Position numbers and translations under genes: made by a program
NCBI GenBank assembly: GCA_030704615.1
Contig: CM060733.1
Location: 11,718,001 to 11,782,000, forward strand
Origin: Takakia lepidozioides
Lineage: Eukaryota > Plantae > Bryophyta
Direction of reading: 5' to 3'
Length of the DNA stretch: 64,000 nucleotides
Notes under the pieces: model-generated
The model's database searches: none
Told to the model about the DNA's origin: nothing
What the model saw: the letters and a program-made list of their open reading frames with translations, nothing else
Part shown: positions 1 through 34,319 of the stretch, piece after piece
Numbering within the stretch: position 1 is the stretch's first letter
Layout of the letters: each line of letters starts with the position of its first letter

Positions 1-1599
1 CTAGTGGTAGTGCTGCTCCGCACATGAATCCCATGCCTCCCATATCTCCTCCCTCAGGAGCAGGAGGTGGACCATCCCGCCTGGGAGCCGGTACCGCCTG
101 AGCTGTAGCCATGGCAGCGAGCCTCTGCTCTAGCTGCTGAAGCCGGTTGGCCATGCCTTGGTCAACACCCTGACCTCCGCGTCCTTGGCCATGTTGAGCT
201 TGCCCTTGGCCTGCACCTCGTGCCCGACCACCTCGTCCTCTCTGGGCTGGTCCACCTCGCCCCCGGCCACCATTGTTCCCTTGGAACTGGCCTGGGCGCA
301 ACTCAGGATGCAAGTCATAACACTGGGCATCTCCATGCCCATACTTGCCACAATGCCCACACTGCAACTGTGCAGGCTGTGCTTGTGCCGGCCTTTTGCC
401 ACTCTCTGGGCAATCTCTCTTGACATGGGGTCCTCCACATGTCCAACATATCACCCCTGGTTGCTGTTGGCCTGCAAAAGATGCCACGGGCCTCTGCACC
501 TGAGGTCCCCTGTAAGCTCCATGGAACTTGGGTTGGGAAACCTTGCCCCCCTGACCACGCTGTTGGGCAGTCCCTTGTGCCTGTGGGCTGGCAGCTGCGC
601 CTCGTGCAGGCATGTCCTTGCCAAATCCAATGGTAACAACTCGCTCCTCCACCATGTTGAGCTCAATCCGCTCAGCCAGCAGAAACACATCTGCTAATGT
701 GGGTTGGGCTGCTTGTAACAGGGTTGCATCCCGCACCCTTCTCCTGAGCTCCTTGTCCAAAATTCCATACCAGAACTGGATTGCCTGAGCTTCAGTAACC
801 CCTTGGGTCACACTTATCAAGCGCCTCATACGAGTGTAGGCCTCTCGCAAGCTCTCACTGGGTTTGCGCTGGAAGTCTTGCAAACTTCGCAGCTTCTCTG
901 TCCGTACACCTTGGTAGTTCCTCCGCAACTCCTGGAAGAACTCCACCACCGGGTTGAATCTAGGCACATGTGTTGTAGTCGTGGCAGGAGGAGTAGTAGC
1001 ACCTTTTGAACTGGTACCACCTGCAGAAGTACCGGCACTACTTGTTCCACTACTAGTGCTGGCAGTGGGAGATATTGGTACTGATGCAGCTACTGGTCGC
1101 GTCGTGCCTCGAGTAATGGAGACGTAGTCAGGTGACCAATACATCCTCCACTCCTCAATCTCTGCTTCATGTCCTCGCCTGAACTCGTGGTAATCGTCCA
1201 TAGGCGGGCCTTCCAAATGCTGGAACAGTCCCTTCCACGCCATGAATGGGGTGAATAGCTGTGGATTGCGCATCTGCTGCAAATCACACCAGCTGTCGAA
1301 CTCCTGGATAAAGTCATCCAACTCGATTGTGCCCACAGCTCCAGAGTACCTACGAGGCCCCTTGGTAGCTCCATACATCTCCTCCATGTCGTCCCACAAC
1401 AATGGCGAATGAAACTGCACACCTGTTGATGAAGCCTCCGAGTCTGTGTCTGACTCTGCACTAGTTGAGGGTGGAGGTGAAGGTGGTCTGAACGAACACC
1501 TCGTCTGTGAACCCACTCTCACTGTTACTGCCTGTAGCCGTACTCCCCTCAAACCCTGGGTAACTCCGTAATGACACTCACAATGTGCACCTCCCCCAC
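1..1599 (-). pseudogene. gag: gag of copy A, with small indels near its 5' end relative to copy B; runs off the window
   Basis: Near-identical to 15211-16813; indels around 1490-1560. Confidence 0.8.
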
Positions 1600-2127
1600 G
1601 TGACACTATAAGGCTCTAGTACTAATTCTAATAGTGACACGGGTAGGCACGGGTGGGCACCTGTTGCAGTAAGGGTCATATCCCAGTGGCTCAGGGCACC
1701 TGCACCTGCATCCACCGCAAGAACTCCTATGGTTGGCTGGTCATCAACCCAGTCTCACCATAGAAGAAACACTGGTGGTCTTGCTGGTCATCACTCCAGC
1801 CTCACCACCGACAACATACTCTAGGATTGACCGGTGATCAAATCCGGCCTAATCCCTATGAAAGCAAGCGCCCACACAAAACCAACATGGCGCACAGTCA
1901 AGCATGCAGGTGTTGGGGGGGATCCAAACACAAGAAATCAAAACATCAACACCCCCACACCAAAATCCAGCTACAATGCTGATCCTGCAGAATATCCCAG
2001 CCCAAAACCCCGGACTGACTGGCCTCCATGAAGAGAGGCTTTGGCAACTACGAGTACAAGGTAATGAAAATAGTACAGAGATGGAGGGAAAGAATAGAAG
2101 CCCGCCCAAGCAAGATCTAATCCTGAT

Positions 2128-2663
2128 TTATGCTATCAACTGCCAGACTTCTCTCAAAGTGCCTCGCTCTGCATGATGGTAAGGTGTAGAAGGTATATCT
2201 ATGTCCAGAAACCTGCCACTAACCTTGTCCCAAGCTACAGTAGCTCGCTCTAACCAACCCTCCTCCTCTTTCTGCCAGGTAGAGACAAAGCAATACTCCC
2301 CTATCTCCCGCTCACTGAACACTAAAGAAAACAAAGGTAGGGTCTGATAGTCTCTCAACTCGAAAGCTTTGAGACGGTTGCGGGTGTCCTCATCGCGAAT
2401 GACTGCATCTCCTTCAAGCAAAACAAACTTGTCATTGCTAATGAACCCCCGCTCGTGGTTGCCTTGTGCAGAGCGTATCCGGCTGCAACCATGTCTGATT
2501 GCACAAACTTGTGCAGCTCCTGCTCCTCTGCTCCAGTACACCACGGCCTTGTGGCTGAACACCTTGGTCCCTGGGGCTGTCTTTGGCTGTGTTCCAAGCC
2601 TAGCTTTCACCCACTTTGGTATTTCACTTACAGCTGCAGAACTGCTGGCTCCAACAGAGTTCT
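2128..2663 (-). pseudogene. Accessory ORF of copy A, N-terminally truncated by a deletion
   Basis: About 13 aa differences over 160 aa versus the C-terminal part of ORF 17334-18083. Copy A lacks ~17870-18175 (3-bp TCT microhomology at the junction). Confidence 0.75.
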
Positions 2664-4774
2664 AAAAATTCCATAGATTTTTAGCAGAGTCCCAAAAACA
2701 AAAACCAGGTCTAGATAGGTAGATTTCCCCTTTCTGCAGCTATCCCCTCAAAAACTGGGTCAAACGGAGCTCATTTAACAAAGATATGACCAACCAGGCT
2801 CTTTAAACATAACACATGTTTTTTTGTTTTTTTTTAACAAGACAAAACAAATACAAGGAAAACTCTTTTTCTTTTTTTTTTCTTTTTTTTTTAATACTTG
2901 TCTTGGTTCCCTGTTCCCTGGTTCCCTAAGAATTCCTTAGATTCTTAACTCAATCTCTCCACAGTGGAATTACCATGATAAAGGTAATGTCCTCATTGGT
3001 ATGCCAGATTTTCAGAATGAGAACACCTTGTTGAAGCTGCTGCTATCAATGCCATCTTATCGTTGTTGTATGAGAGCCCATGTCTAGTGCCCTGTCAGAG
3101 TGACCACAACCAGGATGGCTTTCCGCAACCATTCATGTACTGGGCAAATACATATCAACCACAACAATAAGACCATCACGTTCAATTTGTGATTTCCAAG
3201 GTGGTGCTAATACCTTCATCGACCATTGGCATATACCCCAAGAGCAGCCTGAAGATCGCCATAGCAGAGAGGGTTACAGTATACGCTGGTGCTGTAAACG
3301 CTCAAGCTCTCCAGGACCTCAAACACCACTCTAAACTGGGGTGGTTATTACATCCCCGTGACCAGGGACATGCACAGAACCAAGGCGATGGGATGAAGTT
3401 GCCCCATCTTGAGAACTGATAGCGGGCTTCCAACTAAACGCAAAATCAAAAGGGAGAAGCTCGGCCTGGTGTACCACTTCAAGGACCAAGTGATATAATT
3501 GGACCTGCACCTGCTGGTGGCCGAAATGCCAAATGTACTACAATGTTTTTTTCCTTTTTGTCTCACAATTTCTAACTGCAACTCCGGATCAAAGCACCGC
3601 TGGTCATGTATGTAGAGCCTCACCTGGTCTTCCTTCACTAGGCTGCAATGTTAATATATGAGATCACCCCGTCTCACAAACATTAATGCCGCCACTGTCG
3701 CCTAGACCTGATGCAAGATCTGATCGCAAAGCAGGCTACGCGGCTGGTCCTTCCCTGTGTACATCTATCTCAAGTCACACACGCCGCATCTCATGCTTCT
3801 ACTGCTGATCAGCTTTTCCTTGCTGGACAGCAGCTTACGCACTTGCTAGAAAATCTAGCCTGACCCTGTCCATCCATTTGCTAAGATAAGAAAGCTTGCT
3901 TCCTCGCAATGTGCAGCTAGACAACCTCACATCAACCAGCCCACAACTACTCCTTCATAGTGGCTGGCTATAGTCCAATTTGACAGTGTACTTGAAAAAC
4001 GGGCTGTGTTTCTTGTCTTTCCACACCCAGTCCCCGGAATCAAATTGGCGAAGGTAATTGGCGCCTGAAGGAACCAATGCAGGAAGGGGTTGGTGTGTAG
4101 GCCGTTCACGAGAGAAGGGTTCACGTGGCCTGTTGCTAAGCAGAAAACCCTGATAGCATAGTATGGATTTTCCGGAATGTCAGCAAAGATTGGCCCGAAA
4201 AGGGAACCTGAGGGCCTGACCTTGAACTTCCAACCCTGCAGCAAATGGCCATTGCGAGAGATAGCAAACAATGCAGACTTGCTGCCCTGCAAATCCGAAC
4301 TAACCCAAGCCGGGAGAGACCTAATATTTCATGGAAAGGAAGCCAGTCCCACTCATGCTGGCGGAATATCGCTGGTCACCAAATCCCAGCCAGCGTTTTA
4401 CCTTCGGTGGAACAATCCAACTCACAAAGAATAGGCAGAGCAGAGTAGAGGAGAGGCTAGAGCAGAGGCTGATAGGTGGCAGACCTCCTAGCTCTCCAGC
4501 AGCCCGCCGTAGGTTGAACCTTCCACCCTGAGCCTAGCATGCTTGAAGAAGGCGGGAATCTTCCAGCTCACTCCTTCTTCCTAGCCTCTACCAGCACCAG
4601 CGCAGGTGTAAAACGGCTGTTAAGTAATGCTCAGCAGCCACCTGCAGTTGAGATAACATCAACTGCACCTTCTCCAATTGGGTTTACCAGCAACCTCATT
4701 TCCATTCGGCTGTGGCTCGACCTACTGTCGACTGCGAAAGACCATCGGATGCGCTGCAACACTACATCCCGAGC

Positions 4775-4882
4775 TTAGTCGAAAAGACTGAAACCCATGT
4801 CATCATTAGACTCCTCCTTCGCTTCCTCCTTTTCTCCGGCAGGTGCAGCAGCAGCACCTCCACCAGAGGAAGCCACCACAAC
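4775..4882 (-). pseudogene. Captured fragment of a 60S acidic ribosomal P-stalk protein (P1/P2-type C-terminus)
   Basis: Manual translation of a frame not in the ORF track: VVVASSGGGAAAAPAGEKEEAKEESNDDMGFSLFD*, matching the conserved EESDDDMGFSLFD tail. Confidence 0.9.
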
Positions 4883-5819
4883 CAGGGATGACGCCACCCC
4901 AAACTGTTTGCACTTCGTGATCCAGCCACTCCCGACTGTTTTGGGTCCGAATCCAAAAGTTTACACGAGTCTCGTCTCCCTCCGTCCTAGTGAAAGAGAG
5001 TAAGGAAGCCAACTATCAAAGTCTTCAACCTCCACACCTCTTGGTTTTCAAACTCACGAGTAGAGACGACAACTAAATCTGCGCGCACAGCCCATGGAAA
5101 CAGCAGGGCCAGATGGACTCCCGCCCCAAGATATATATTATAATAATGCTAAAACAAACATTGTATCTAGCTTAGCACTAGCACACTAGATAACGCTCAT
5201 CTCTCTCGAGTGATAAACAAGCTAAAAAGGACACACACTCTCAACACAAGAAATATAAAATCCATCGCTATCACTCTTTAAAATAGAAGTCGAGCCAGGG
5301 GCGCCCCACGCTATGGGGACTCCACCCCACAACAACCTACACTCCCATCATAAGCACACTCAGATCTAAACGCATGAAGGAGCTCGGTCGCGCAGGCTCA
5401 ACTCGAGAGAGATGAGCTGCGCGACTGTCGCTCTCGTGAAGATAAGGCGGTTCAGGTGTCAAACTAAACTTGACACCTGATTTAACACTTGACCTAAATC
5501 CAAGTGTTAAATACAAATAACTAGCTTTATTCTAGTTTTTTTCACACTGTGCTTATTTAACTTGACACCCTGTTTTTAAAGATGGCAGCCTGATAAGGCA
5601 ATGACAGGCCTCTTTCATACCTGGATTTGGTGTGGAATGGAGCATAATGAGGTTTTATTTGCAAAACCTGGCACAAAGCCTCTTGGAAAACAGTGTTGGT
5701 AAGCTCTACTGGACCTTGGCCAGTGATTATTTGCCTTATTTTGCCATCAGACCAGCCACCTGCAATGTATGATTGTTTTTTTGGCCAAGTAGGCTTGGTC
5801 TCGGGCACTCAAAGTGTAT

Positions 5820-6460
5820 GTGTGTCCATATCTTGAGACTGTAACATGGCAAGCCTTTCTTCCATGCCAAGATGCCTTACATGATGCATGTCTTGGGGCA
5901 ACTGTACATGGTGTAGAATGAAGTTGCACTCTGTCTTGTCATGCCCAAGTGGGTCACTTGGTTGCATGTTTGGAGTCTGATAAACTGCAGGCTGGTCCAT
6001 CAAGATGCTTGTGTACACATGTCTTGAATCTATACAATGACAGGCTGTTCTTACCTACCCAAGAGGCCTTGCATGATGCATGTCTTGGGGTACTTACAAA
6101 TGGCAAAGAACAAAGCTGCAATATGTTTTGTCATGCCCAAAAAGATTACTAGGTTGCGTGTTTGAAATCTGGTAAATTGCAGGCTGGTCCTTCAAGCTGC
6201 TTGTATAGACATACCCTGAATCTATTATAGGGCAGGCTGTTCTTACCTACCCATGGAGCCTTGCATGGTGCATGTCTTGGGTCACTTCAAGGTACCTGTG
6301 TATACATATCTTGGATTTGTCATGTGGCAAGTAGTTCTTACATGCCCATGATATGTTGCATGATGCATATCTTGTGGATAATTATGGATGATATAATCTA
6401 AGGCTGCAATTTGACTTGTATTGTGCAAGAGGGTCACTTGGGTACATGTCAGGAATCTGA
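5820..6460. repeat. Diverged tandem repeat, ~190-bp period
   Basis: TGATGCATGTCTTGGG-like block at ~5882, 6075, 6265, 6361; CAGGCTGTTCTTACCTACCC at ~6041 and ~6233. Confidence 0.7.
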
Positions 6461-7247: not shown

Positions 7248-9164
7248 TTAGGCCTCTCTTAGTCTCCTCAGCACTTGGCATGCATCCTTCAGGCTCCCGC
7301 ATTTAGCATACATGTTCACTAAGGTATTCTCCAAATTAATATATGACCCAGTTCCAGTTTTGATAATGTCAGCATGAACCCTTTTGCCCTTTTCCAGGGC
7401 ACATGCATTGAGAATGCAAATGAAGGTGACCAAATCAGGGGTCACCCTTGCCTGTAGCATTTGCTCATAGATCTCAAAAGCTTCCTTACCAAACCCATGC
7501 TGAGCATATCTTGCAATCATCGCACTCCATAACAAATCCCATCTTCAAAGTGGTGAAAGCGGTTGGCGTCCCATACAAAAAATTGCTCGGCCAGCAATCT
7601 TTGAGATGAATTTGGTGGAGGTGTGGCAGTCACCACACACTCGAAGATTCTTGATGAGACGGAGAGGCGTCCTAGGGGTCGTGCTGATCAGCCCAAAACC
7701 ATTGGCCAGCTTCTCACTGTGGTGGCAAGGAGAAACTCCTTTTCCTCCTCCCCCATTTCGCAATACAAAGCGCGTGTCAGGCACATACCCCGCCTCCTTC
7801 ATCTGCCCAGACAATCTTCTCAGCTCAGCATGGATTTCCTTAATTCTGGGATGCAACTTGTCATCTACAATGAAGGTGTGCACCTTGTTGCCAACCTCAA
7901 TGCAGCAGCGACCTGGCTCCTGGCTCCTTTCTAACCCCTTCTGACCTTGATCATTCTTCTCACCTTTGCAGTATCATCCCACCTGCCAACTGCGGCATAG
8001 ATGTTTGATAGCAACACATAAGTCGCGCCATCCTGTTCATCCCGCTAGAGGATAGATGTTGCCGCACGTTCAGCAATCTCCACATTGCCATGGATTTTGC
8101 AGGCACCAAGCAAGGCCTTCCACACCACAACATCTGGATTTCAGTAGGCCAGTGTGGCTGCATACAGTGAGAACACATATAAAGGTGATATTGTCCGGCT
8201 TCAAGCCTTTCTTTTGCAGTCCTTCAAATAGTTGTAGGACCTCTCTATGACAACCATGCTGGGCATATCCTGCAATCATTGCATTCCACGACACCACATT
8301 TCATTTAGCCATATTGTCAAATACTCACTTTGCATCCTCACTGCACCCACATTTCACATACATGTCCACCAGGGCAGCGTCCAGAATGACATTTGGTACA
8401 ATTCCAGCTTTGATGATGTCACCATGGCGCACCTCTTTGCTGGAACGCCACGAAATGCCATGCATCCATGCCTCCATGGAACGCCATGCTCTGCCAGGCT
8501 TGCAAACGCACACAAACATGATGTGGTCGGGCTTCACCCCTTCCCCCAGGCCTCCATCCCGCGCTCTTGCTATGCATATCCTGCAAGCATGGCGTTCCCA
8601 AATCTCATTCAGCCATATTGTTGAACACTCCCTCCACATCCTCAATGCTCCCACATTTGGCATACATGTCTACGAGGGTATTGTTCATAATCACATCTGG
8701 TAGAATTCCAGCTTTGGCGATGCAACCATGCACCTCTTTGCCCTTTTCCAGGGCTGCCAGGCTTGCACACGCAGTGCAAACGCACACAAACGTGATGTGG
8801 TTGGGCTTCACCCCTTCGCACATCATTCCAAGGCCTCCATCCCGCACCCTGCTGTGCATAGCCTGCAAGCATTGAGGTCCATGACACCACATCTCATTCA
8901 GCCATAGTCTTGAAAACTCCCTTCGCATCCTTAATGCACCCACATTTGGCATACATGTCCACCAGGGCAGTGTTCAGGATGACATCTAGTACAATTCTAG
9001 CTTTGACGATGTCGCCATGGACCTCTTTCCCTTTTTCCAGAGCTGCCAGGCTTGCACACACACTGCAAACACAAACAAATGTGATGTGGTTGGGCTTCAC
9101 CCCTTCGCACATCATTTGCTTATAGGTCTGCAAAGCCTCCATCCCGCACCCTTGATGTGCATAT
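7248..9164 (-). pseudogene. PLS-class PPR-E-DYW RNA-editing factor pseudogene, 3' part
   Basis: Frameshifted PLS repeats (WNAMIAGYAQHG, GVKPNHITFVCV, ALVDMYAKCG); E motifs; PG box (EPGRCCIEVGNKVHTF); DYW domain with HSEKLA, KNLRVCGDCH and RFHHFEDG at ~7536-7930. Confidence 0.9.
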
Positions 9165-9509
9165 TGTCGTGCGCATACATATCGCTACACAACTACATCG
9201 CTGTCCAAACCACACCACACATATATGCACAATAAAGTAGTCTACCCCAATCGCCCCCCTAGCTGGTGGATAGGTCCCTCTACCTCCAGATAGCTACAAG
9301 ATGTAATAGCCACAGCCGTACTAAGTCCTCTATCACTGTCCCTATTGTACTCAAACTCTATAGACCAAGAGGCCGGGTACAAGAGTAGCCCCATCGTTAG
9401 TCGCCATCTTGCAATCTGTGAACTTGAGCCAGGACCTCGTGTGTTCAAGGTCTCCTAGTAGCTGGGCCTTGCGTTTCTTGTTAGCCTTCCATGGTTGTAT
9501 CCACTCCCA

Positions 9510-12479
9510 CTATCCAATGCAATGTGGACATAACCAATCCCCATCCGGAACCATCTCAAGAGGTGGAGTCAAGCACCCCATATGCCAACCTCTAGAGCAT
9601 CGATCACACACCAGCATGGTGGCTGCCCCTTTAGCAGACCCACACAACATGCACCTCAAACCTGCAGATACCACTGCCAGGTTTGGGTCAATCCTGCCAT
9701 CGACATTCGGAAGGTGACATGGCGCACAATTACGCACATGGTCCTTCCAAGCTATGCCATCCCGACCCTCCAAGACCAAGACGCCTGAGGGCAAGACCTC
9801 TCGAACCCTCAAAATAACACGTCCTGCAGTCACATCCAGGGTCGTAGGAGCAGTCTGCTGCAGATAGACATAGTCACCAGGGTTGAATCTCCGAACCCCA
9901 GGATGATAGCCCCCACCACGTATGGTAGCATACCTCAACGTATCACGGTGTTGTGCAATGGCAAGGTTCTCGAAAGCCATGGGCATGACTCTCTTGAACA
10001 ACTCTGCACGCTGCTCACATGCACGTGCCCACACATCCGGATCGTCAAGGTTAAGAACGGTAGCAGCTTCTCTGCGAATGGATGTAGGCAAATCCGGCTC
10101 TCGGCCAAAGAGAAGAAAGTATGGTGAGAAGGAGGCAAGTGATGCTTGCTTGCTGAACCTGTAGCCCATGGCTAACCAGGGTAACTGAAGGTCCCAATCT
10201 CCTAGGTGTCCCTTCTGCAAGCCATACTTGCGCAAACCCCTCTTTACTGTCTGAACAACTCTCTCTGCCAAGCCATCGGCCTCAGGATGATCCCGAGAAG
10301 TGGTGCGGTGGTCTATCAAGGCCTTGTCACACAAAGCCTGAAACTCCCCCAAGAACTCTCTCCCTTGGTCCGTGAGTACCTCAGCTGGAGCACCGAATCG
10401 GCTAAGCACACAATCCAAGAATGCATACGCAGCTCCCTCACTAGCCTTATCAGGCAATGGAACCAATTCAATCCACTTGGAGAAGTGCTCCACCATCACC
10501 AACACGTACTTGTTGTGGCGCATGGTCAGTGGCAACGGCCCTGCGAAGTCAAGACTCCACCTGTAGCCCAATCCCATGATCGGAAGAGGGTGCAATTGTG
10601 GAGTAGGGGCGTTGAATGAAGCACGCACCCTGTCACACACCATGCACCTAGCCACAAATTGTTGCACCTCTGTGTGCATACCACGCCACCAATACTGCCC
10701 CTGCAGTAGACTATGAGTGCGTCGCACCCCAAAATGCCCCAACTCCTCATGGGCATGCCGCACTAACCGTGCCCGCTGTGTTGGGTGAGGCACAATCCTC
10801 ACTCGACCATCCTCCCACACTCGGAGCAGGTGTGTCCCCTCCCACCTGAACCTCTTGGCTCGTTGTAGGATCCGATCCCTCTCCTTGGCAGTCATAGTGG
10901 CTGCCGTGTCTCCACTGCGGAGGTCCAACACAACTGTCCTCATGTATACTTTGCCACTCCTCTCTTGCTCATTGGCCTCAGGGTCCTCAGACACTTGATC
11001 TACAGTCATCCCTGTTGTAGGTCCAACCTGGCCTTCCGCTGCCAAGATACACAGAAATGCAGATGCATGCCATCCGGGCACCATCTCCTCGTCCGTCTCA
11101 CCATGCCACCGAGCTCCAGTGTCATCCTGCTGGCTCGTGCATGGATTGCGACTCAACCCATCTGCATTTCGATTGACCAAACCCGGTCGATGCACCACCT
11201 GAAAGTCATACTCTTGAAGGATGAGTGCCCACCGTGCAAGCTTCCCCGTAAGCTTGTCTGACTCCATCAACCACTTGAGTGGTTGGTGATCCGTGACAAG
11301 GGTGAAGAGATTGCCGTATAGATAGCACCTGAAGTGTGCCACGGCCCACACTGCAGCTAAGCATTCTCCCTCATATGAGCTATACTTAGACTCTGCAGCA
11401 TTGTTCGAGCGGCTAGCATAAGCCACTACGAACTCTCTTCCCTCATCATCCACCTGTGTGAGCACCGCTCCAAGCCCCAGCATGCTCCAATCTGTATGCA
11501 GCTGAAAAGGACGCCCCCTGATAGGTCGTCTCAAGATGGGCGCCGAGGTCAACCTCGCCTTGAGCTCTTGAAAAGCTTGTTCTTGCTCATCTTCCCACTG
11601 CCACTCCTGGTCCACCTTGGTCAGCTTGGTTAGAGCCTTTGCAATGGCACTAAATCCCTTAACAAACCGTCTGTAATAGTTTGCTAACCCCATGAAAGCT
11701 CGAACTCGGCTCACATCCGTGGGGCGTGGAACCTGTGCAATGGACTCTACCTTAGTCTGCTGTACCCCCAATCCTCCAGGATATATCATGTGACCCAGAT
11801 ACTCAATCTGGTTGTGGAAAAACTTGCACTTGCCCGGATGTAACTTCAATCCGTGCGTCCTCAAGCGCTCAAATACCCCCTGAAGGTGTCTCTCATGCTC
11901 CTCCACCGTAGCACTAAAGATGATGATGTCATCTATGTAGCACCGAGCAAACTCCACCCCTGCTAGAATCCTGTCCATGACTCTTTGAAACTCAGCGGGA
12001 GCGTTTTTAAGCCCAAATGGTAAGAACCGCCACTGGTATAGGCAATCCTTCCCGTGCTCATTGATCCCCCAGAATGCCGTCTTTTGCTTATCCGCCTCCT
12101 TGATCGGCAACTGGTGATATCCGGATCGTAAATCCAACGTGCTAAAGACCTTGGAATGCCCAATGGCATCAAAGATCTCCTCTGGTGTTGGCATGGCATA
12201 CCTATCGGACTTGGTCTGACGATTTACAGGCCGGTAATCACCGCACATACGTCTCTCCGTCCAATTGCCATAGACATCCTTCTTAGCTGGCATCACTGTG
12301 GCTGAAGCATACTCTCCACCAGAGAGCTCCACCAAACCTGCCTCCCAGAGATCTTGAGTCCTCATCTGAATCAAAGACCTCTCCATGTCACTGTATCTAT
12401 AGGGTCTCCGAAAGATTGGCGTGTCAGTGGCCAACTCAATACGGATCTCTTGACCCTTCAGTGCTCCCAAGTCCTTCAA
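9510..12479 (-). CDS. pol: pol C-terminal part: reverse transcriptase, RNase H, integrase, PHD finger
   Basis: [32 protein letters not shown]; RNase H TDWS/YEGECLA/TDH/NADGLSR; integrase H-H-C-C and D(SLDF)-D(TDQG)-E(GLAER). RT-RH-IN order indicates Ty3/Gypsy. C4HC3 PHD at 9519-9653. Confidence 0.95.
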   Translation of the reverse strand: MKDLGALKGQEIRIELATDTPIFRRPYRYSDMERSLIQMRTQDLWEAGLVELSGGEYASATVMPAKKDVYGNWTERRMCGDYRPVNRQTKSDRYAMPTPEEIFDAIGHSKVFSTLDLRSGYHQLPIKEADKQKTAFWGINEHGKDCLYQWRFLPFGLKNAPAEFQRVMDRILAGVEFARCYIDDIIIFSATVEEHERHLQGVFERLRTHGLKLHPGKCKFFHNQIEYLGHMIYPGGLGVQQTKVESIAQVPRPTDVSRVRAFMGLANYYRRFVKGFSAIAKALTKLTKVDQEWQWEDEQEQAFQELKARLTSAPILRRPIRGRPFQLHTDWSMLGLGAVLTQVDDEGREFVVAYASRSNNAAESKYSSYEGECLAAVWAVAHFRCYLYGNLFTLVTDHQPLKWLMESDKLTGKLARWALILQEYDFQVVHRPGLVNRNADGLSRNPCTSQQDDTGARWHGETDEEMVPGWHASAFLCILAAEGQVGPTTGMTVDQVSEDPEANEQERSGKVYMRTVVLDLRSGDTAATMTAKERDRILQRAKRFRWEGTHLLRVWEDGRVRIVPHPTQRARLVRHAHEELGHFGVRRTHSLLQGQYWWRGMHTEVQQFVARCMVCDRVRASFNAPTPQLHPLPIMGLGYRWSLDFAGPLPLTMRHNKYVLVMVEHFSKWIELVPLPDKASEGAAYAFLDCVLSRFGAPAEVLTDQGREFLGEFQALCDKALIDHRTTSRDHPEADGLAERVVQTVKRGLRKYGLQKGHLGDWDLQLPWLAMGYRFSKQASLASFSPYFLLFGREPDLPTSIRREAATVLNLDDPDVWARACEQRAELFKRVMPMAFENLAIAQHRDTLRYATIRGGGYHPGVRRFNPGDYVYLQQTAPTTLDVTAGRVILRVREVLPSGVLVLEGRDGIAWKDHVRNCAPCHLPNVDGRIDPNLAVVSAGLRCMLCGSAKGAATMLVCDRCSRGWHMGCLTPPLEMVPDGDWLCPHCIG

Positions 12480-12939
12480 ACTGAAGGCAAAGCAATTCCT
12501 GTAAGCCCTCAGGAACCGCCGTATACGTCGTCTCTCTCCTCCGGTGACAATGGGTCCAATGTCAGGCTCCCAATTGTCCTCCGTAACTGCAACCTGAAGT
12601 CCAGTGGGCTTAGAGGTAGAGGACGCGTCCCGTGGTTGCTATGCTGCAACCTCTTGAGCAGTACCCCCTTCCTGCTCAGTCAATGACAAGGCCTCATCCT
12701 GCCCCATCATCTCATCATTGAGAACCTCCTCATCCCGAGAAGAATCCCCAACCTCATCCATCACAGCTGCCTTCGCTGCCAACTCCCTCTGAACCTCGAG
12801 CACCTCCCACGTGTGCCATGGATGTCTACACCTCGTGGTCCTCACCGGCTCGCCCCCACTCGCTGCCTGTACCGTCTCGGTAGGCAGAGAGACCGTCAAG
12901 GGAAGTGCACTCCGCACTCTACGTTGCTCAGCCATAGCC

Positions 12940-13885
12940 AAGCTGACAATCCAGGTCAAGCAATTGAGATCCATTGCTTGCCCCAGCACCTGACGACGTG
13001 ATGCCTCAGAAAGAGAAGGCACCGCCGTGGTCCCAGTGGAAAACCCCATAGCCCGCTCTCGCTCGTCGGCATTAGGCTCCACTAACTGCTGCAACTGAGC
13101 ATCCCACAAGAGGCCAGGTCCACCATCCCGAAAAGCATGGGATCCTGGGAAGCTGAGCAGTGTAGGTAATGCTGCTCGTGGTTGACCCACCCTGTTGACC
13201 ACTGCCAAAGGCGAACGGTCATCGTGTCTCACACGTTGAGACTGCCTTCCTGTGTCCAAAATGCCATCCACGGTGAGGTGTGCTGGCGCTGCACCCCATC
13301 AAATGCACGCTTGAGCAGTGCGGGTGGCATCAAGTTAGTCCACCATAGTCGTGGACGATGAGCCCGTGACCCCACTGCAGCTGCATCCAGCAACACTGCT
13401 GACCCAAGCCACGACCGGACTTGATGCACACTGGCCATCACCCTGGCCCGAGAATCACCCATCAGTGGTACATTCTCCAAGATGTATGCTGGAGATACAG
13501 GTTGATGAAGCTGCAAGCAGCGCAAAATCCGCATCATCTCCCAAAACAGACCCATCCTCGAGTCTCGCAATCCATTGCCATGCCTGGCTGATGAATGCCC
13601 TTGGCAGGGCCAACCTGCCACTACCAGATCAATGGAGCCAACCCGCTCCAAATCCTGCGCCCCCAGCAACGCAATGTTGCTGGCAAGGCCTGCTGATATC
13701 CACGAACTGCAGACACCGGCAACAACTCAGGGTACTGCTGCACCATCTGAGCAACATGGCGCAGTGAGACGCGTCGTTCAGTCTCATCCCTCTCCACATA
13801 CAGGTAACGTCGAACTCGTACACCTGCCTGCAGCACTGCAGCCAATCCAGTGCTGATCCCGCCAAATAAGTCCAGAAGGCATATG
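12940..13885 (-). pseudogene. DNMT3-like C5 DNA cytosine methyltransferase domain within pol (two frameshifts)
   Basis: Motif I LLDLFGGISTG; motif II YVERD; motif IV IDLVVAGWPCQG (Cys at 13604-13606); motif VI YILENV; motif VIII AHRPRLWWTN; motif IX ERERAMGF; motif X RRQVLGQAM. Spread over ORFs 13621-14241, 13229-13669 and 12639-13271. Confidence 0.92.
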
Positions 13886-14173
13886 CCTTCATCCGGCCGC
13901 TGCCACACAAGAGGTGTGGTGTCCAATGGCGACAACTGAGGTGGCCCTCGTACAATTACCGCACTCTCCTCCTCTCCTGACGGTACAAAAGCTTCTACCC
14001 AAGCTTGTTGCACCCGTCCATCAGCAGCGTGCTGCAAATCCTTGCTCGTACCCCACAATGGAGTGTGAGCAACCATGACAGGCAACTCCGCCGTACCATG
14101 CATATCATCCTGCTCTGCTGGAGGTGGCACATCCTCTGCATGGGCATTGCCTTCCAGCAACTCTCCAGGCCAG

Positions 14174-15205
14174 CTAACTGCAGCTGTGAAGGCGGCTAGT
14201 GTTGGCATTTGCCCGCTGCTGAGCAGCTGCAATACCCCCAATGAATGTCACAGGGAGCTGTGCACGGCGACCATCCCCTGACTGCCATCCAGGCCTGTAG
14301 GATGCTGACTCCTCCCAGAAATCCAGGGTGAAGCCCATGGGGTATAACACTGCCCCACCAACGAGGACATCGTAAGAGACCGCGTCTGTCACAATGGCCT
14401 TGGCTCGCATTACTGAGCCATTTACAGGATGATCCGGTTGCACTCTAATAGCCAACTGATGCCGTGTCATGCCGCGAGCCTGCTCTGATCCTCCCAGAGA
14501 TGTCTGTATCTGGAAAGGACAAGACTCCATATCCGCCTCCATGAGGCCCAAACCTGCAATAGCAGCTCTGCCCAACCGGTACTCTTGACCCCTGTACTTC
14601 TTGCCTGCCGGTCCACTCAAAGTGAAAATGCCTCCCTGGTTATCTAACAAGACAACTCCAGGTGTCACCATGGCACACTCAATGGCTGGCCTAGCTGGCA
14701 GCTCCGTCAATCTGGCAGCTGCAGCTTGCCAGGGCGCTGCCGTGGCAGTCTTGACCCTCAAATCCGAGGATCCCTCTGCCACTACACCTTCCAGTAACTC
14801 CGCAGAAGATGAAGTGACCTCTCCACTCTTGCAGAGTGTTGCTGCTAGTCTGAACACTGCAGCTGGTCTCACTCCCGGCGTCGCAATCATGGTCGCCGAG
14901 AACAGTGGGGCTTGACACACAGAGGTGGCTGCTCCCAATAACACACCGGCTGCACTAGCCTTGGTAGCAGGTGTCAGTGCTGCACGTGTAGGTCTCCCCA
15001 ATGGCATAGTAACCTCCGCCTCGGTAACAGTCGGGCGAGAACTAGGTGCCATGGATGGCGTTGACACTGTCTCCGCCAATGTGAATGACTGGGGAAGCCT
15101 CGCCTGACGGCTTGCCTCCCCACGCTGTGGATCCAATTCCACCTCTGCACCTCGTGGCTCAGGAACTCGTGCTGCTCCTCGAGTCACGGCTGCAGCAGAC
15201 TCCAC
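14174..15205 (-). CDS. pol N-terminal linker plus retropepsin-like protease region (catalytic D-S/T-G not found)
   Basis: In frame with gag after one TAG. Flap-like QIQTSLGG and YDVLVG motifs present; position between gag and RT. Confidence 0.6.
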   Translation of the reverse strand: MESAAAVTRGAARVPEPRGAEVELDPQRGEASRQARLPQSFTLAETVSTPSMAPSSRPTVTEAEVTMPLGRPTRAALTPATKASAAGVLLGAATSVCQAPLFSATMIATPGVRPAAVFRLAATLCKSGEVTSSSAELLEGVVAEGSSDLRVKTATAAPWQAAAARLTELPARPAIECAMVTPGVVLLDNQGGIFTLSGPAGKKYRGQEYRLGRAAIAGLGLMEADMESCPFQIQTSLGGSEQARGMTRHQLAIRVQPDHPVNGSVMRAKAIVTDAVSYDVLVGGAVLYPMGFTLDFWEESASYRPGWQSGDGRRAQLPVTFIGGIAAAQQRANANTSRLHSCS

Positions 15206-16813
15206 CTACTCTAGTGGTAGTGCTGCTCCGCACATAAATCCCATGCCTCCCATATCTCCTCCCTCAGGAGTAGGAGGTGGACCATCCCGCCTGGGAGCCG
15301 GTACCGCCTGAGCTATAGCCATGGCAGCGAGCCTCTGCTCTAGCTGCTGAAGCCGGTTGGCCATGCCTTGATCAACGCCCTGACCTCCGCGTCCTTGGCC
15401 ATGTTGAGCTTGCCCTTGGCCTGCACCTCGTGCCCGACCACCTCGTCCTCTCTGGGCTGGTCCACCTCGCCCCCGGCCACCATTGTTCCCTTGGAACTGG
15501 CCTGGGTGCAACTTAGGATGCAAGTCATAACACTGGGCATCTACATGCCCATTTTTGCCACAATGCCCACACTGCAACTGTGCAGGCTGTGCTTGTGCCG
15601 GCCTTCTGCCATTCTCTGGGCAATCTCTTTTGACATGGGGTCCTCCACATGTCCAACATATCACCCCTGGTTGCTGTTGGCCTGCAAAAGATGCCACGGG
15701 CCTCTGCACCTGAGGTCCCCTGTAAGCTCCATGGAACTTGGGCTGGGCAACCTTGCCCCCCTGACCACGCTGTTGGGCAGTCCCTTGTGCTTGTGGGCTG
15801 ACAGCTGTGCCCCGTACATGCATGTCCTTACCAAATCCAATTGTAACAACTCGCTCCTCCACCATGTTGAGCTCAATCCGCTCAGCCAGCAGAAACACAT
15901 CTGCTAATGTGGGTTGGGCTGCTTGTAACAGGGTTGCATCTCGCACCCTTCTCTTGAGTTCCTTGTCCAGAATTGCATACCAAAACTGGATTGCCTGAGC
16001 TTCAGTAACCCCTTGGGTCACACTTATCAAGCGCCTCATACGAGTGTACGCCTCTCGCAGGCTCTCATTGGGTTTGCGTTGGAAGTCTTGCAAACTTCGC
16101 AGCTTCTCTGTCCGTACACCTTGGTAGTTCCTCCGCAACTCCTGGAAGAACTCCACCACCGGGTTGAATCTAGGCACATGTGTTGTAGTCGTGGCAGGAG
16201 AAGTAGTAGCACATTTTGAACTGGTACCACCTATAGAAGTACCAGCACTACTTGCTCCACTACTAGTGCTGGTAGCGGGAGCTATTGGTACTGATGCAGC
16301 TACTGGTCGCGTCGTGCCTCGAGTAATGGAGACGTAGTCAGGTGACCAATACATCCTCCACTCCTCAATCTCTGCTTCATGTCCTCGCCTGAACTCGTGG
16401 TAATCGTCCATAGGCGGGCCTTCCAAATGCTGGAACAGTCCCTTCCACGCCATGAATGGGGTGAATAGCTGTGGATTGCGCATCTGCTGCAAATCACACC
16501 AGCTGTCGAACTCCTGGATAAAGTCATCCAACTCGATTGTGCCCACAGCTCCAGAGTACCTACGAGGCCCCTTGGTAGCTCCATACATCTCCTCCATGTC
16601 GTCCCACAACAATGGCGAATGAAAGTGCACACCTGTTGATGAAGCCTCCGAGTCTGTGTCTGACGCTACAGTAGTTGAGGGTGGCGGTGAAGGTGGTCTG
16701 AACCGAATACCTCGTCTTGTGAACCCACTCTCACTGTCACTGCTTGTAGCCGTACTCCCCTCAAAACCCTTGGGTAACTCCGTAATGACACTCACAATGT
16801 GCACCTCCTCCAC
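15206..16813 (-). CDS. gag: gag with capsid-like region and two zinc knuckles
   Basis: FQRKPNESLREAYTR major-homology-like motif; CWTCGGPHVKRDC and CGHCGKNGHVDAQC; RGG-rich tail. ORF is called from GTG; first ATG at 16597. Confidence 0.85.
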   Translation of the reverse strand: MEEVHIVSVITELPKGFEGSTATSSDSESGFTRRGIRFRPPSPPPSTTVASDTDSEASSTGVHFHSPLLWDDMEEMYGATKGPRRYSGAVGTIELDDFIQEFDSWCDLQQMRNPQLFTPFMAWKGLFQHLEGPPMDDYHEFRRGHEAEIEEWRMYWSPDYVSITRGTTRPVAASVPIAPATSTSSGASSAGTSIGGTSSKCATTSPATTTTHVPRFNPVVEFFQELRRNYQGVRTEKLRSLQDFQRKPNESLREAYTRMRRLISVTQGVTEAQAIQFWYAILDKELKRRVRDATLLQAAQPTLADVFLLAERIELNMVEERVVTIGFGKDMHVRGTAVSPQAQGTAQQRGQGGKVAQPKFHGAYRGPQVQRPVASFAGQQQPGVICWTCGGPHVKRDCPENGRRPAQAQPAQLQCGHCGKNGHVDAQCYDLHPKLHPGQFQGNNGGRGRGGPAQRGRGGRARGAGQGQAQHGQGRGGQGVDQGMANRLQQLEQRLAAMAIAQAVPAPRRDGPPPTPEGGDMGGMGFMCGAALPLE

Positions 16814-17333
16814 GTGACACTATAAGGCTCTAGTACTAATCTAATAGTGACACGGGTGGGCACCTGTTGCAGTCTAAGGGTCATATCCCAATGGCTCAGG
16901 GCACCTGCACCTGCATCCACCGCAAAAACTCCTATGGTTGGCTGGTCATCAACCCAGCCTCACCATAGAAGAAACACTGGTGGTCTTGCTGGTCATCACT
17001 CCAGCCTCACCACCGACAGCATACTCTAGGATTGACCGGTGATCAAATCCGGCCTAATCCCTATGAAAGCAAGCGCCCACACAAAACCAACATGGCGCAC
17101 AGTCAAGCATGCAGGTGTTGGGGGGGATCCAAACACAAGAAATCAAAACATCAACACCCCCACACCAAAATCCAGCAGCCACGCTGATCCTGCAGAATAT
17201 CCCAGCCCAAAAACCCCGGACTGACTGGCCTCCACCAAGAGAGGCTTTGGCAACTACAAGTATAAGGTAATGAAAATAGTACAAAGATGGAGGGGAAGAA
17301 TAGAAGCCCGCCCAAGCAAGATCTAACCCTGAT

Positions 17334-18083
17334 CTATGCTATCAACTTCCAGACTTCTCTCAAAGTACCTCGCTCTGCTTGATGGTAAGGTGTAGGAGGT
17401 ATATCTATGTCCAGAAACCTGCCACTAACCTTGTCCCAAGCTACAGTAGCTCGCTCTAACCAACCCTCCTCCTCTTTCTGCCAGGTAGAGACAAAGCAAC
17501 ACTCTGCTATCTCCCGCTCACTGAACACTAAAGAAAACAAAGGTAGGGTCTGATAGTCTCTCAACTCGAAAGCTTTGAGACGGTTGCGGGTGTCTTCATT
17601 GCGAATGACTGCATCGCCTTCAAACAGAACAAACTTGTCCTCGCTAATGAACCCCCGCTCGTGGTTGCCTTGTGCAGAGCGTGTCTGTCTGCAACACTGT
17701 CTAATTGCACAAACTTGTGCAGCTCCTGCTCCTCTGCTCCAGTACACCACGGCCTTGTGGCTGAACACCTTGGTCCCTGGAGCTGTCTTTGGCTGTGTTC
17801 CAAGCCTAGCTTTCACCCACTTTGGTATTTCACCTACAGCTGCAGAACTGCTGGCTCCAACAGAGTTCTGACTGTCCAAGGCGATATTGAGGCCCTCAAT
17901 GCCAACTACAGCAGTCTGTTGTCTACTGCTAATGCCTGACTCCCAGTATGCAATCAACTCGTCCAACTGTTCTCCACTCAAATCAGTCTGAGTTCCTTGG
18001 GAAACATAGATCCTGTCCCCTTGTGTGCACAGGCTAAGAGAAGAGACCTGCCCTTCAATTACGTCCTCATTTCCCCCAGCCAT
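17334..18083 (-). CDS. Accessory ORF of unknown function upstream of gag (249 aa)
   Basis: ATG-initiated, same strand as gag-pol, C-terminal 160 aa and stop position shared with copy A. Confidence 0.65.
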   Translation of the reverse strand: MAGGNEDVIEGQVSSLSLCTQGDRIYVSQGTQTDLSGEQLDELIAYWESGISSRQQTAVVGIEGLNIALDSQNSVGASSSAAVGEIPKWVKARLGTQPKTAPGTKVFSHKAVVYWSRGAGAAQVCAIRQCCRQTRSAQGNHERGFISEDKFVLFEGDAVIRNEDTRNRLKAFELRDYQTLPLFSLVFSEREIAECCFVSTWQKEEEGWLERATVAWDKVSGRFLDIDIPPTPYHQAERGTLREVWKLIA

Positions 18084-20699
18084 ACAGGGAGTACATCCAC
18101 AGGTTTGTCTCTCATATAGGCCAGCACAGGTTCTAGAAACAGGATTGTGGATATTTTATGGCACACTCACACTCTAAAAATTCCATAGATTTTTAGCAGA
18201 GTCCCAAAAACAGAAACCAGGTCTAGGTAGGTAGATTTCCCCTTTCTGCAGCTATCCCCCCAAAAACTGAGTCAAACAGAGTCCATTTGACAAAGATATG
18301 ACCAATTTGGCTTTAAATCATTTAAATTAGATCAAAAGGGCCCTTTTTTTTTTTTTTTTTTTTTTAAAGGGTTTTCAAATTTAAAAATTTAAAGTTACAC
18401 CCAAAACATTTGGTAACTGGTTCCCGGTTCCCTAAGTTCTATATGGTTTCCTAGGTTCCCTAGCCACGTGCCCTATAATTTATAGGATTTAGTTGTGTTT
18501 ACAAATGCACCCCCCACAGCTCTTGGTTACCAGTGACCTGCTCTCCTCCAGTCGAGATCCGTAGCTATGCCGAGCCTTAATCCTTTGCACCAATATTCCC
18601 AACAAAAGCAAGAGCACTTACAATGCAACCCCGAAAAGCACCAGAGCTAACTAGCTTGATCAAGAACGCTTACAGCCCTTCATGCGTGCTGATTTTTCAA
18701 GGTGACAACAACAGATCTGCTATCACTGATTGTGAAAGCCTTTCCATGGAGTTGGCACAGGCTGCCCTCAAGTTCTGGATTGTTCACATAGACCGAGCAT
18801 GTCATGTAGTGAGCTGGGCCCCTTCTGTCTTCAAGGGACCGGCAGTTTCAGATGACACCACATTAATGCCTAAATTGTCATCCTTCCCTGCTCCTTTTTA
18901 TCTGATTCCTCCACGGTCAGATTCTTCAAGCCGCATCAGATTCCAGCTTACAAGCCTTTCAATTGACGCTCAAAGTGCCACATCCACACTTGCTTGGTTA
19001 TTGGGCAGAACTGACGTCGATCAGGCAAGAAGAGAAATTTCTGGATCAGACCAGTGCATTGATCATTTCCCAAGACCACGTATGCTGCTTCTTTCGGCGC
19101 TTCTCCAGAAGCCAGAGTCATTAAGTTATGGCGCTCCCCTCAGCAAACCATCCGCCAGCGAGCCTATTCACAGTTCTGCTCTGTCCATCTTTCGCAACAG
19201 CAGTTTTGCTCTCTTGCAAACCCTAGCTTCTAGTCAGCGCAAGTCATCCCTTCAATTCTTGATGGCCTTGCTCCCTCCTCTGGCAGGTGCATAAGTTACA
19301 AGGCTGCTTCACATGTTTGCTCATCCTCCAGCATTCAATGAATGGACGAATGGCTGCACTGCAGGACACCACCAGGCAGTAGAATACGCCAAGTTCCTTG
19401 GTATTCCTATCTCTTGCTCATTCCACAGCCCCTCAACATTACCAATCATATTCGAAGCTCTTGGAGTTCCTGCTCCTGGTCCGATTCAATTGCAGCAAAA
19501 GCCAGACATGCTAGAAAAACTGCCAGACTCTGATCAGGCTAAGAAAGAAGATACAGCCACTGTGACAGCTGCCAATGTGCCCACATGCGTCAAGAAAAGC
19601 TACAGCCCAACTTCAGTGGAAAGATGTGCTTTGCCTGCAGAGGAGCCTGATACAGACAGTATGTTCAGTTTGCCACTTGCAGGACCAGGCTCTCTAATTG
19701 AGGAGCCAGAATGTGGAAATGATGAAAATGGAGAGAGTGAGGTGTGCTCTACTGCAAAGGATGTTGGAGTGGGCATCTTTCAAATTGCTACCCCAGGTAC
19801 AGAGGAAGCGAAGAGAAGTTCGGAGGAAGGAAACATGCGGGTTGCCAGTGATGGTATTGCTATTGACCAGGATGCTACCTCAGAAAATCAATTAGATTCT
19901 GCTCTTCCGCTGCCTTTCCTGACCGCACAATACGTCACTCTTTCCCATTTCTTCCTTAACGGCTGCTGCGCCTCACTGAGGCTCGAAGAACTGCTACGAT
20001 CACATGTTCGATCTCCAAGTCTTTACGTCCGCTTCCACCTCATTTCTTCCCTGCGTTTGTGTGGGTGTGACGAGCAGCAAGGTAAGAGGCACTTGCAGTT
20101 ACCCTGCACACGACCTCACTGACCGCTTCTGGTCGGTGCACATCGAACTAAGGCGAGCAGCCCATACTCTACCTCCTGACTGCCCCACCTCGCCCTCTCT
20201 GCACGCCGTTCCATTCTCCCTCATCTCCATCTCCAGGCACGGAAGTTCTACTCATCTGCTCGATTACAGGTACCCCTTTAAGTCTCGCACTTGGTCAGTT
20301 TCCGAACGGCCAATCGCTGCTACACCATGATATCTCCTCACCGACCAAAACGAAGGCTGCTTCCCCGCAGTATAGCTCCGTCCTGGCCCGGCGGCCTCAT
20401 GCCAGAACCAACGCTATCCTCAACCAGTAGAACAAGACCAGTTCTTTGCCCCTGCTTGCCATGCAGCCTGCCTCCATGGACCATCTATATACCCAGAAAC
20501 CAACGATGATCGAAACCAGCATGTTTTTTTTTTTTAAAGCTTCTCAAACTAAGCATTACTTACACACATGTAATCATACAAGTGCTAACCCTCAACTCCT
20601 ACCTTGCACTCACAGGTAAGAGGTGATCTTTCTCGAGTGATAAGAAGCATAGAAACACTGTTGACACAAAACATGTGAAATCCATCTCTATCACTCGTT

Positions 20700-20987
20700 A
20701 TAATAGAAGTCGAGCCAGGGGCACCCCAAGCTATGGGGACTCCACCCCACAACAACCTACACTCCCATCATGAGTACACTCAGATCTAAACGCATGCAAG
20801 AGCTCGGTCGCGCAGGCTCAACTCGAGAAAGATGAGCTACGCGACTGCCGCTCTCGTGAAGATAAGACGGACCAGGTGTCAAACTAAACTTGACACCTGA
20901 TTTAACACTTGACCTAAATCCAAGTGTTAAATACAAATAGCTAGTTTTATGCTAGCTGTTTTCACACTGTGCTTATTTAACTTGACA
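20700..20987 (-). other. Hairpin-rich 5' terminal region of the DNMT element (copy A equivalent 5280-5567)
   Basis: Stems at 20724-20738, 20807-20845, 20873-20899 (perfect 10 bp), 20900-20932 (perfect 12 bp) and ~20935-20960. Confidence 0.8.
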
Positions 20988-21480
20988 ATATCAATCATTG
21001 CACTCCACAACACCACCTCTCGTTCAGCCATACTGTTGAACACTTCCTTGGCATCCTTAATGCACCCACATTTGACATACATGTCCACCAGGGCAGTGTT
21101 CAGCATGACACCGGGTACAATTCCAGATTTGACGATGCAACCATGGACCTCTTTGCACTTTTCCAGGCTGCCAGGTTTGCACACGCATTGCAAACACACA
21201 CAAACATGATGTGGTCGAGCTTCACCCCTTCCCCCATCATTTGCTGATAGGTCTCCAAAGCCTCATCCCGCGCCCCTGCTGTACACACCCTGCAAGCATC
21301 GCGTTCCACGACACCACATCTCGTTCAGCCATAGGTTGAACACTCCCTTGGCATCCTCAATGCTCCCACATTTGGCATACATATCCACCAGAGTAGTATT
21401 CAGGATGACATCTGGTACAATTGATGATGTCACCATGGATCTCTTTGCCAGGGCTGCCAGACGCACTGCAAACATACACA
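20988..21480 (-). pseudogene. PLS-PPR pseudogene, 5' part (same gene as 7248-9164)
   Basis: Frameshifted PLS repeats ending at the insertion junction in VVLWSAMI. Confidence 0.85.
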
Positions 21481-34264: not shown

Positions 34265-34305
34265 GATGAGGCCAATCCCAAGGACGATCGCGTACTGAAC
34301 TCTAA

Positions 34306-34317
34306 GCTCTGATACCA
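34306..34317 (-). promoter_or_regulatory. Primer-binding site, tRNA-iMet
   Basis: TGGTATCAGAGC two nt inside the 5' LTR. Confidence 0.95.
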
Positions 34318-34319
34318 AG

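Follow-up and report, generated by a model that had tools for sequence, protein, structure and literature searches.

KnitGypsy-Dnmt3, as found in Klebsormidium nitens, combines the domain set of Gypsy retrotransposons with DIRS-like repeats (de Mendoza et al. 2018, PMC5890265). It resembles the element described here in its non-permuted Dnmt3 ahead of the reverse transcriptase (RT), its Gypsy domain set, its DIRS-like repeats, and the purifying selection acting on its DNA methyltransferase (DNMT). It differs in that PMC5890265 places the DNMT in the Pol ORF, whereas the DNMT described here ends ORF1, ahead of a conserved stop, and in that its host is Klebsormidium rather than, as here, a land plant. 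The available portion of the main text of PMC5890265 makes no mention of a PHD finger, of readthrough, of target sites or their duplications, of a palindromic junction, or of two insertion forms. In yeast the Klebsormidium domain gave no methylation, a result that its authors do not treat as decisive given that DNMT3B was likewise inactive there; the domains of SymbioDIRS-Dnmt3 do methylate CG de novo in yeast (PMC5890265). SymbioDIRS-Dnmt3 is alike in being a retrotransposon-borne Dnmt3, but combines a DIRS RT with a tyrosine recombinase, whereas here are found a Gypsy-like RT, a DDE integrase, and 4-bp duplications.

KnitGypsy-Dnmt3 is called streptophyte, citing de Mendoza 2018, in PMC12344493 and in bioRxiv 10.64898/2026.05.21.726589, the supplementary trees of which may hold bryophyte copies. 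A 2019 opinion paper has methylase-encoding transposons as absent from land plants such as tracheophytes (PMC6338049). A literature search, with subscription journals and Repbase lying outside of it, turned up no paper describing DNMT-bearing elements in land plants, nor any paper on the stop codon considered below, and the available text of PMC6317226, of PMC11982613, and of bioRxiv 10.1101/2021.02.12.428880 makes no mention of DNMT-bearing elements. The kind of element, that is, is already published, and what is added here is a land-plant range, a readthrough-type stop after the DNMT, and split-repeat, integrase-type ends.

The stretch of DNA that was analysed, 64,000 nucleotides in length, is referred to here as the window. 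Its retroelement, along with a second and truncated copy of the same family, has the following features:

9165..20987, minus strand: whole retroelement, short form A-ORFs-B, 11.8 kb, with termini TGTCA...CGACA
20626..20987, minus strand: terminal repeat A at the element's 5' end, which matches the corresponding end of the second copy (5199-5567) with 89% identity
18306..20625, no strand assigned: variable region, not alike between the two window copies, with opposite-strand ORFs 18581-19294 and 19295-20122
16820..18305, minus strand: 5' region found in the two copies alike, within which a stop-to-stop frame of 273 codons (17334-18155) belongs to no known family
15206..16597, minus strand: gag (capsid-like and Cys/His knuckle region), PF03732 at E 2.6e-4, below cut-off
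14174..15205, minus strand: protease region, lacking the LLDSG active-site stretch that relatives have (near 14590), and with a frame change near 14215
12940..13885, minus strand: DNMT3-type C5 cytosine methyltransferase, motifs I-X, with two frame changes, near 13680 and 13280
12633..12641, minus strand: in-frame TAG followed by CAA CCA (CAR-YYA), a likely readthrough signal
9510..12638, minus strand: ORF2, i.e., RT, RNase H, H2C2 and DDE integrase, and C-terminal PHD finger; an unbroken frame of 1042 codons in which the first Met is codon 85
9254..9265, minus strand: polypurine-tract-like motif adjoining repeat B, the same motif standing before B in moss-type loci, L075 and L080
9165..9250, minus strand: terminal repeat B (3' end), with its preceding tract 68% similar to B of moss-type loci, E 4e-13
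1..5567, minus strand: second copy, from the same family, of which repeat A, the variable region and gag are present before the window edge truncates it ahead of the methyltransferase

A 4-bp target duplication, ATAT, brackets the element (at 9161-9164 and 20988-20991), and PPR coding sequence lies to both sides, such that a PPR gene has been split by the element. Contigs of uninterrupted PPR alleles indeed part from the window at 9164. The PPR gene fragments themselves (7248-9164 and 20992-21547) contain an E+ and a DYW domain, as is usual for RNA-editing factors of organelles. Read from its 5' end, the element consists of repeat A, the variable region, gag, protease, DNMT, RT, RNase H, DDE integrase, PHD finger, purine tract, and repeat B, with repeat A resembling sequence found 3' of B in other copies, as seen in contigs of the window's species. 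The second copy (1-2663) is 96% identical to 15211-17869. Segmental duplication as the source of the two copies was rejected, as their shared parts stop at the element's own termini and as one of them interrupts a PPR gene. In the window's species the family is numerous: 98,895 contig pieces of run X1 aligned to 9000-18600, 30,405 of them at a level of at least 99%, a count which includes PPR pieces and which is not a copy number.

The 2.3-2.4 kb following repeat A differ wholly between the two copies, i.e., 2794-5198 and 18306-20625 display neither DNA nor protein similarity. Within 18306-20625 two ORFs, of 237 and 275 codons, lie in frame on the opposite strand and have no known relatives; the region has no Pfam match, and ORF 19295-20119 found 0 matches among 1.84 billion representatives. 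This variable region may be captured host DNA or, instead, a fast-changing accessory gene. Elsewhere in the window is a very young chromovirus (28070-35047) with 728-bp LTRs that are 100% identical, an unbroken 1542-codon gag-pol-chromodomain frame, and a CpG observed/expected of 0.90 versus 0.54 for the window. Also present are degenerate tandem repeats of about 267 and 96/192 bases (56200-57400 and 5800-6460) and a single-exon F-box/KIB1-4 beta-propeller gene (60306-61505). The F-box/KIB gene and the PPR-E+-DYW genes mark the host as a land plant, and among named organisms it is liverworts and mosses that have the element's nearest relatives.

Motifs I, II, IV, VI, VIII, IX and X of the DNMT are all found within 12940-13885, in canonical order and on the minus strand, that is, on the gag-pol strand, just as had been claimed in an earlier, sequence-only reading of this DNA. 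Motif I is LLDLFGG (near 13880), motif II YLYVE, motif IV GWPCQG (Cys codon 13604-13606), motif VI ILENV (13469-13477), motif VIII SRAHRPRLWWTNL, motif IX ERERAMGF, and motif X RRQVLGQAMD (near 12980). These motifs are spread over three frames, with changes near 13680 and 13280 as seen using tblastn with an unbroken Marchantia relative (P0012). A match to PF00145 was a check set beforehand, and the middle frame does match (E 1.8e-11, 44.5 bits, cut-off 22), with the other two frames, taken alone, giving no Pfam match.

A likeness to DNMT3 without the permutation of DRM had been claimed as well, and profile and fold searches point the same way. Against PDB sequences, 25 of 25 matches to the middle frame are DNMT3A, 3B or 3C. 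A profile of 18 relatives matches DNMT3A at 1e-26, DNMT3B at 1e-23, HhaI at 1e-9 and DNMT2 at 1e-7; plant DRM is matched by the same profile at 1e-12 to 1e-17, for the first motifs only, with DRM structures matching just profile positions 40-170 and doing so via the DRM C-terminal part. The predicted model of a natural relative (P0017, mean pLDDT 75.5) has DNMT3A as its best solved-structure match (~320 columns, E 5e-16). By these searches the domain is assigned to the DNMT3 class, with DRM, DNMT1, DNMT2 and bacterial enzymes all appearing more distant from it than DNMT3. Plant DRM identity was rejected, as the motifs are not circularly permuted, i.e., they run from I to X. Catalytic PC is kept in 61 of 66 sequences and ENV in 57 of 70, and unbroken copies are likely to be catalytically active on DNA.

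The window copy itself cannot make a DNMT protein, its first frame being dead. That frame is interrupted by a stop (15206-15208), shifts near 14215, 13680 and 13280, and lacks the LLDSG protease site. The stop is copy-specific and terminates a gag that is 58% identical to that of Marchantia P0012, which is without a stop at this place. Unbroken relatives (P0061 and L075) have aspartyl-protease Pfam matches, though below cut-off. At each of the three frame-change places, one-base differences occur in contigs of three runs, with single-base variants at 13286 and 13677 reaching only about half and a tenth of X1 depth; the window's frame changes may be mutations or instead assembly errors. All four frame-breaking lesions as well as the lost protease active site fall within 12642-15208, the protease-DNMT part, with gag and the 1042-codon pol open; the chance of such clustering of the four lesions is about 0.017, as calculated post hoc.

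For the DNMT core there are 117 homologues, with top identities of 65-73%, and the named ones among them belong to Marchantia polymorpha, Calypogeia fissa, Sphagnum species, Riccia sorocarpa and Klebsormidium nitens. Relatives of the family are found in Marchantia, Calypogeia, Riccia, Sphagnum, Coleochaete, Closterium and Klebsormidium. From a metagenome set, 80 loci were kept out of 275 matches, with the 60 having at least 1200 bases downstream being testable. RT lies within 2.5 kb downstream of the DNMT in 58 of those 60, at a near-constant spacing, most metagenome loci being of one moss-type family and some of the same genomic site, such that they are not independent. Sphagnum-named proteins cluster with proteins from the moss-type contigs.

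In an RT-RNase H tree (FastTree, 100 rows, at least 360 aligned residues each, SH-like support), the window joins Marchantia and Calypogeia with support of 98. That clade sits inside of a 19-row group which includes Coleochaete scutata (support 100), itself inside of a 56-row group including Closterium and Klebsormidium (support 95), with Tetraselmis next. The window's RT shares 70% identity with that of Coleochaete and 42-49% with that of Klebsormidium. One Klebsormidium row (P0089) is found just outside of the 56-row group, on a long branch, and the window's own chromovirus sits in another part of the tree. Within an 88-row RT group, 17 of the 18 proteins having at least 279 residues before the RT possess a DNMT there. 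The sequence-only reading had pointed to DNMT-carrying elements of Klebsormidium, and kinship to these is supported by the shared RT group as well as by 43-48% identity between DNMT segments of the window and Klebsormidium KFL_009030040. It had also named as a refutation that other copies of the RT family lack the domain, and this is not what the above loci and proteins display.

Several further members of this wider group may be recorded. The chlorophyte Tetraselmis (P0197, P0210) and the zygnematophyte Closterium (P0193, P0220, P0225) lie within the DNMT-bearing RT group. A second arrangement, with the DNMT after the RT, is seen in P0168, P0170, P0176, P0181, P0183 and P0099, in the last of these before the integrase. 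P0232, a distant PHD-bearing relative, has a Dam-type adenine methylase (PF05869) of a kind described in bioRxiv 10.64898/2026.05.21.726589. P0238, an RT-family member, is filed under an uncultured cyanobacterium and is probably plant DNA in a bin.

Estimation of dN/dS had been put forward as a check, and its outcome is purifying selection on the DNMT in unbroken relatives. For DNMT segments, dN is 0.01-0.03 versus a dS of 0.23-0.29 between L075 and L077, and 0.12-0.17 versus 1.29-1.51 between L075 and L080. Across unbroken, divergent relatives dN/dS is about 0.04-0.13 for the DNMT versus 0.02-0.03 for RT plus integrase, and in decayed moss-type copies it is 0.46-0.57 versus 0.39-0.42. The DNMT in unbroken relatives is under purifying selection, that is, but is less constrained than RT and integrase.

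As judged from these comparisons, this is a family of retroelements rather than a one-off, and it constitutes a land-plant branch of KnitGypsy-Dnmt3. As in the latter, an intronless Dnmt3 stands between protease and RT, and the RT groups with that of Klebsormidium. The DIRS-like layout is present in relatives, with the window copy being of a short A..B form and with a B-A junction occurring in contigs of its species. The DNMT does not, however, share the ORF of the RT, one in-frame stop coming between, and this marks the element as a variant.

The sequence-only reading called the element Ty3/Gypsy-type, which holds for its gag-protease-RT-RNase H-integrase order, its TG..CA ends, and its 4-bp duplication, but not for its repeats, which are split rather than ordinary LTRs. 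Indeed, no LTR pair is found in the window copy, i.e., two full direct LTRs are lacking, and no tRNA primer site (TGG) was seen after repeat A, where such a site would follow a 5' LTR. An A1-ORFs-B1-A2-B2 layout, as in the PAT/Ngaro-type split direct repeats of DIRS elements, is seen instead in L025, L029, L034 and L057. DIRS/PAT/Ngaro identity (PAT/Ngaro-type elements being named in PMC12440569) was rejected given the rve integrase and target duplications; the likeness is that of layout, with no tyrosine recombinase found in the window's family (L075 has only two ORFs of at least 200 codons), whereas TG..CA ends and target duplications are integrase hallmarks. Rejected as well were chromovirus identity, as a PHD finger instead of a chromodomain follows the integrase, and Troyka, which has CG..CG ends and a 3-bp duplication and is from animals only (PMC12440569), versus TG..CA and 4 bp here. 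The available text of the Phygy/Selgy paper (PMC6317226) makes no mention of PHD or methyltransferase, a comparison made by text.

Insertions of the moss type come in two forms. The long form, A1-ORFs-B1-NN-A2-B2, in which B is followed by two bases and then by a second A, is seen at 8 loci, and the short form, as in the window, with unrelated sequence after B, at 10; one locus that is cut at B and two that are rearranged were left out of these counts. Both ends are clear at 8 moss-type loci, 4 of the long form and 4 of the short, with two of the 8 representing one site, and all of them have a 4-bp duplication, which in 3 cases contains one mismatch. At the B/A junction the sequence is ACGACA-GC-TGTCA, or nearly so, in moss-type loci, L075, L080, and contigs of the window's species, with its core, GACAGCTGTC, being palindromic. 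A purine tract stands directly before B in all four lineages, implying that plus-strand priming would start at B and, further, that the integrase ends would lie inside of the repeat, in a head-to-tail arrangement such as that of a circle junction.

Whether the integrase cuts this internal palindromic B-NN-A junction, thereby giving short (A..B) as well as long (A..B-A-B) insertions, I consider to be evenly balanced. Foamy virus integrase is known to cleave palindromic LTR-LTR junctions (PMC1180852), and the likeness, which is an analogy only, consists of a palindromic end-to-end junction with a 2-base spacer that is cuttable by integrase. The foamy virus junction forms in circles, however, whereas that of the window's family is a built-in part of the element. 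Of 19 5' ends, not one has B ahead of it, which argues against random cutting of a two-junction circle and against the simple integrase-cut version as well. The short form could also stem from recombination between B1 and B2.

A single TAG (12639-12641) divides the DNMT frame from the RT frame, with RT following at once and in frame. The sequence-only reading had the DNMT inside of pol, between protease and RT, and it does lie between those two, but as the end of ORF1, with this TAG preceding the RT. Many database homologues similarly end about 95-100 residues past motif X. Just before the RT, a stop-CAR(or TAA)-YYN is present in 63 of 68 RT-anchored sequences (44 TAG, 19 TAA; 53 at the same distance), most of the 63 being of the moss-type family, the loci of which are one family and partly the same sites, such that independent support for the stop comes from about three or four lineages. 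The 5 exceptions are TAC in place of the stop (two), TAG TAG (one), and an insertion (two). Among 54 evaluable sequences, all 16 of the same-frame, one-stop cases have stop-CAR here. Exact CAR-YYA is found in 9 of the 68 (the window and 8 loci) under four spellings, CAACCA, CAATCA, CAGTTA and CAATTA, versus a background of 73 among 17,930 TAGs; the moss-type family has CAA CCC ATG, one base off of the motif and with an AUG directly behind. Codons upstream of the stop vary, without conservation, and single RNA folds downstream of it, for 8 sequences and with no shuffle control, gave structures that differed.

UAG-CAR-YYA is the tobamovirus type I readthrough motif (PMC3542737; PMC2194720), and it is in this context that the likeness to those viruses lies. 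The in-frame stops of MuLV, Tca2 and SIRE1 are alike in that one such stop sets a two-product ratio (PMC2194720), but here the stop comes after protease and methyltransferase rather than at a gag/protease or pol/env boundary. In L075 a 1369-codon ORF1 (protease and DNMT) is followed by TAG CAG TTA and a 1047-codon ORF2 (RT-RNase H-integrase-PHD), the two ORFs being three bases apart. Going by sequence, it is quite likely that the stop is read through into ORF2. Such a stop following the DNMT suggests that the element selects for a high DNMT dose. In several algal-type relatives a single open frame, without a stop, spans DNMT and RT, such that Gag-level DNMT dosage is not universal.

The explanation preferred here, and as a whole somewhat probable, is that of a gag-protease-DNMT3 ORF1, a readthrough stop, Gag-level packaging, and, likely, methylation of cDNA before or at insertion. 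ORF1 would end at the stop, with low-rate readthrough giving RT-RNase H-integrase-PHD, such that far more Gag-protease-DNMT than RT-integrase would be made. The sequence-only reading had the DNMT packaged along with RT and integrase; with its position at the end of the gag-protease ORF, it would be made at the Gag level instead. So packaged in the particle, and then freed by protease, the DNMT would methylate new cDNA before or at insertion, and copies would arrive marked like host repeats. The integrase's PHD finger would read histones and thereby steer insertion. That cDNA is the main DNMT substrate has about an even chance of being correct, and steering of insertion by a histone-reading PHD finger on the integrase could go either way. 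CpG depletion of the element (0.51 versus a window average of 0.54) provides no sign of self-methylation.

Alternatively, though this is unlikely, the DNMT could act after insertion or in trans, entering the nucleus with integrase-PHD or released from Gag, there methylating the insertion site, other copies, or competitors and damping expression. A histone-reading PHD finger on the integrase would fit with this, as would a Gag-level dosage exceeding the need of one cDNA, and insertion-site effects and self-restraint are both discussed in PMC5890265. The DNMT domain, however, is without a targeting module of its own. Gag products of Ty3/Gypsy elements, moreover, mostly stay in particles, which also counts against action elsewhere. 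Differences between the two window copies are enriched at CHG (26/606) and CG (10/308) over CHH (30/1887), as expected of methylated DNA, but host CMT and MET would account equally well for that mutation pattern.

It is also possible, though quite improbable, that ORF2 is expressed without readthrough, whether because ribosomes reinitiate at an AUG close by or because the RNA is spliced or starts internally, with the stop context kept for some other reason. The first ORF2 AUG is at codon 3 in the moss-type L001, 5 in L077 and 14 in L080, and reinitiation is possible there; an in-frame stop in Candida Tca2, furthermore, displayed no detectable readthrough in a yeast test system (PMC2194720). 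Against this, the first AUG comes only at codon 85 in the window and 117 in both L073 and L075, i.e., in 3 of 6 lineages there is none before codon 85-117, while conserved RT residues start near codon 23. The four hexamers, too, all fit CAR-YYA while adjoining codons vary, and ORF1 and ORF2 stay in frame.

A DNMT domain that is kept as a nucleic-acid-binding or RNA-modifying module, without methylation of DNA, seems very unlikely. The inactivity of the Klebsormidium domain in yeast would be consistent with such a role, as would a location at the end of Gag-protease, in which the domain would encounter RNA before any other nucleic acid. Conservation of the SAM-binding motif I, of catalytic PC, of ENV, and of motif VIII argues otherwise, however, as do a sequence and fold that are far nearer to DNMT3 than to DNMT2 and the de novo CG methylation by Symbiodinium retrotransposon Dnmt3 domains. 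Lastly, a host DNMT3 or DRM gene inserted just once into the window copy can effectively be dismissed, for although the breaks of this copy do cluster in its protease-DNMT part, the domain recurs at this position in 58 of 60 loci, and does so across liverworts, mosses and charophytes, no host DNMT3 is among the named homologues, and the domain is not permuted in the manner of DRM.

A bolder extension of the preferred explanation, that of capsid-level DNMT3 via a leaky stop along with cDNA pre-methylation, I put forward only tentatively and consider rather doubtful. This is that the elements form a distinct green-plant lineage, from chlorophytes to mosses and liverworts, in which a DDE integrase cuts a built-in palindromic junction, i.e., a DIRS-like path with a retroviral integrase, and which escapes LTR finders for want of an LTR pair.

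With split-repeat ends, standard LTR surveys would miss this group, and those ends point as well to an unusual integration path. Bryophyte annotations, furthermore, can mistake DNMTs of these elements for host DNA methyltransferases, and several of the homologues bear such names. In contrast with the view taken in PMC6338049, methylase-encoding elements are a family of liverworts and mosses, the model Marchantia included, and in the window's species they are very numerous. The question posed by de Mendoza 2018, of why a transposon carries its own silencing enzyme, may as a consequence be testable in a genetically tractable plant.
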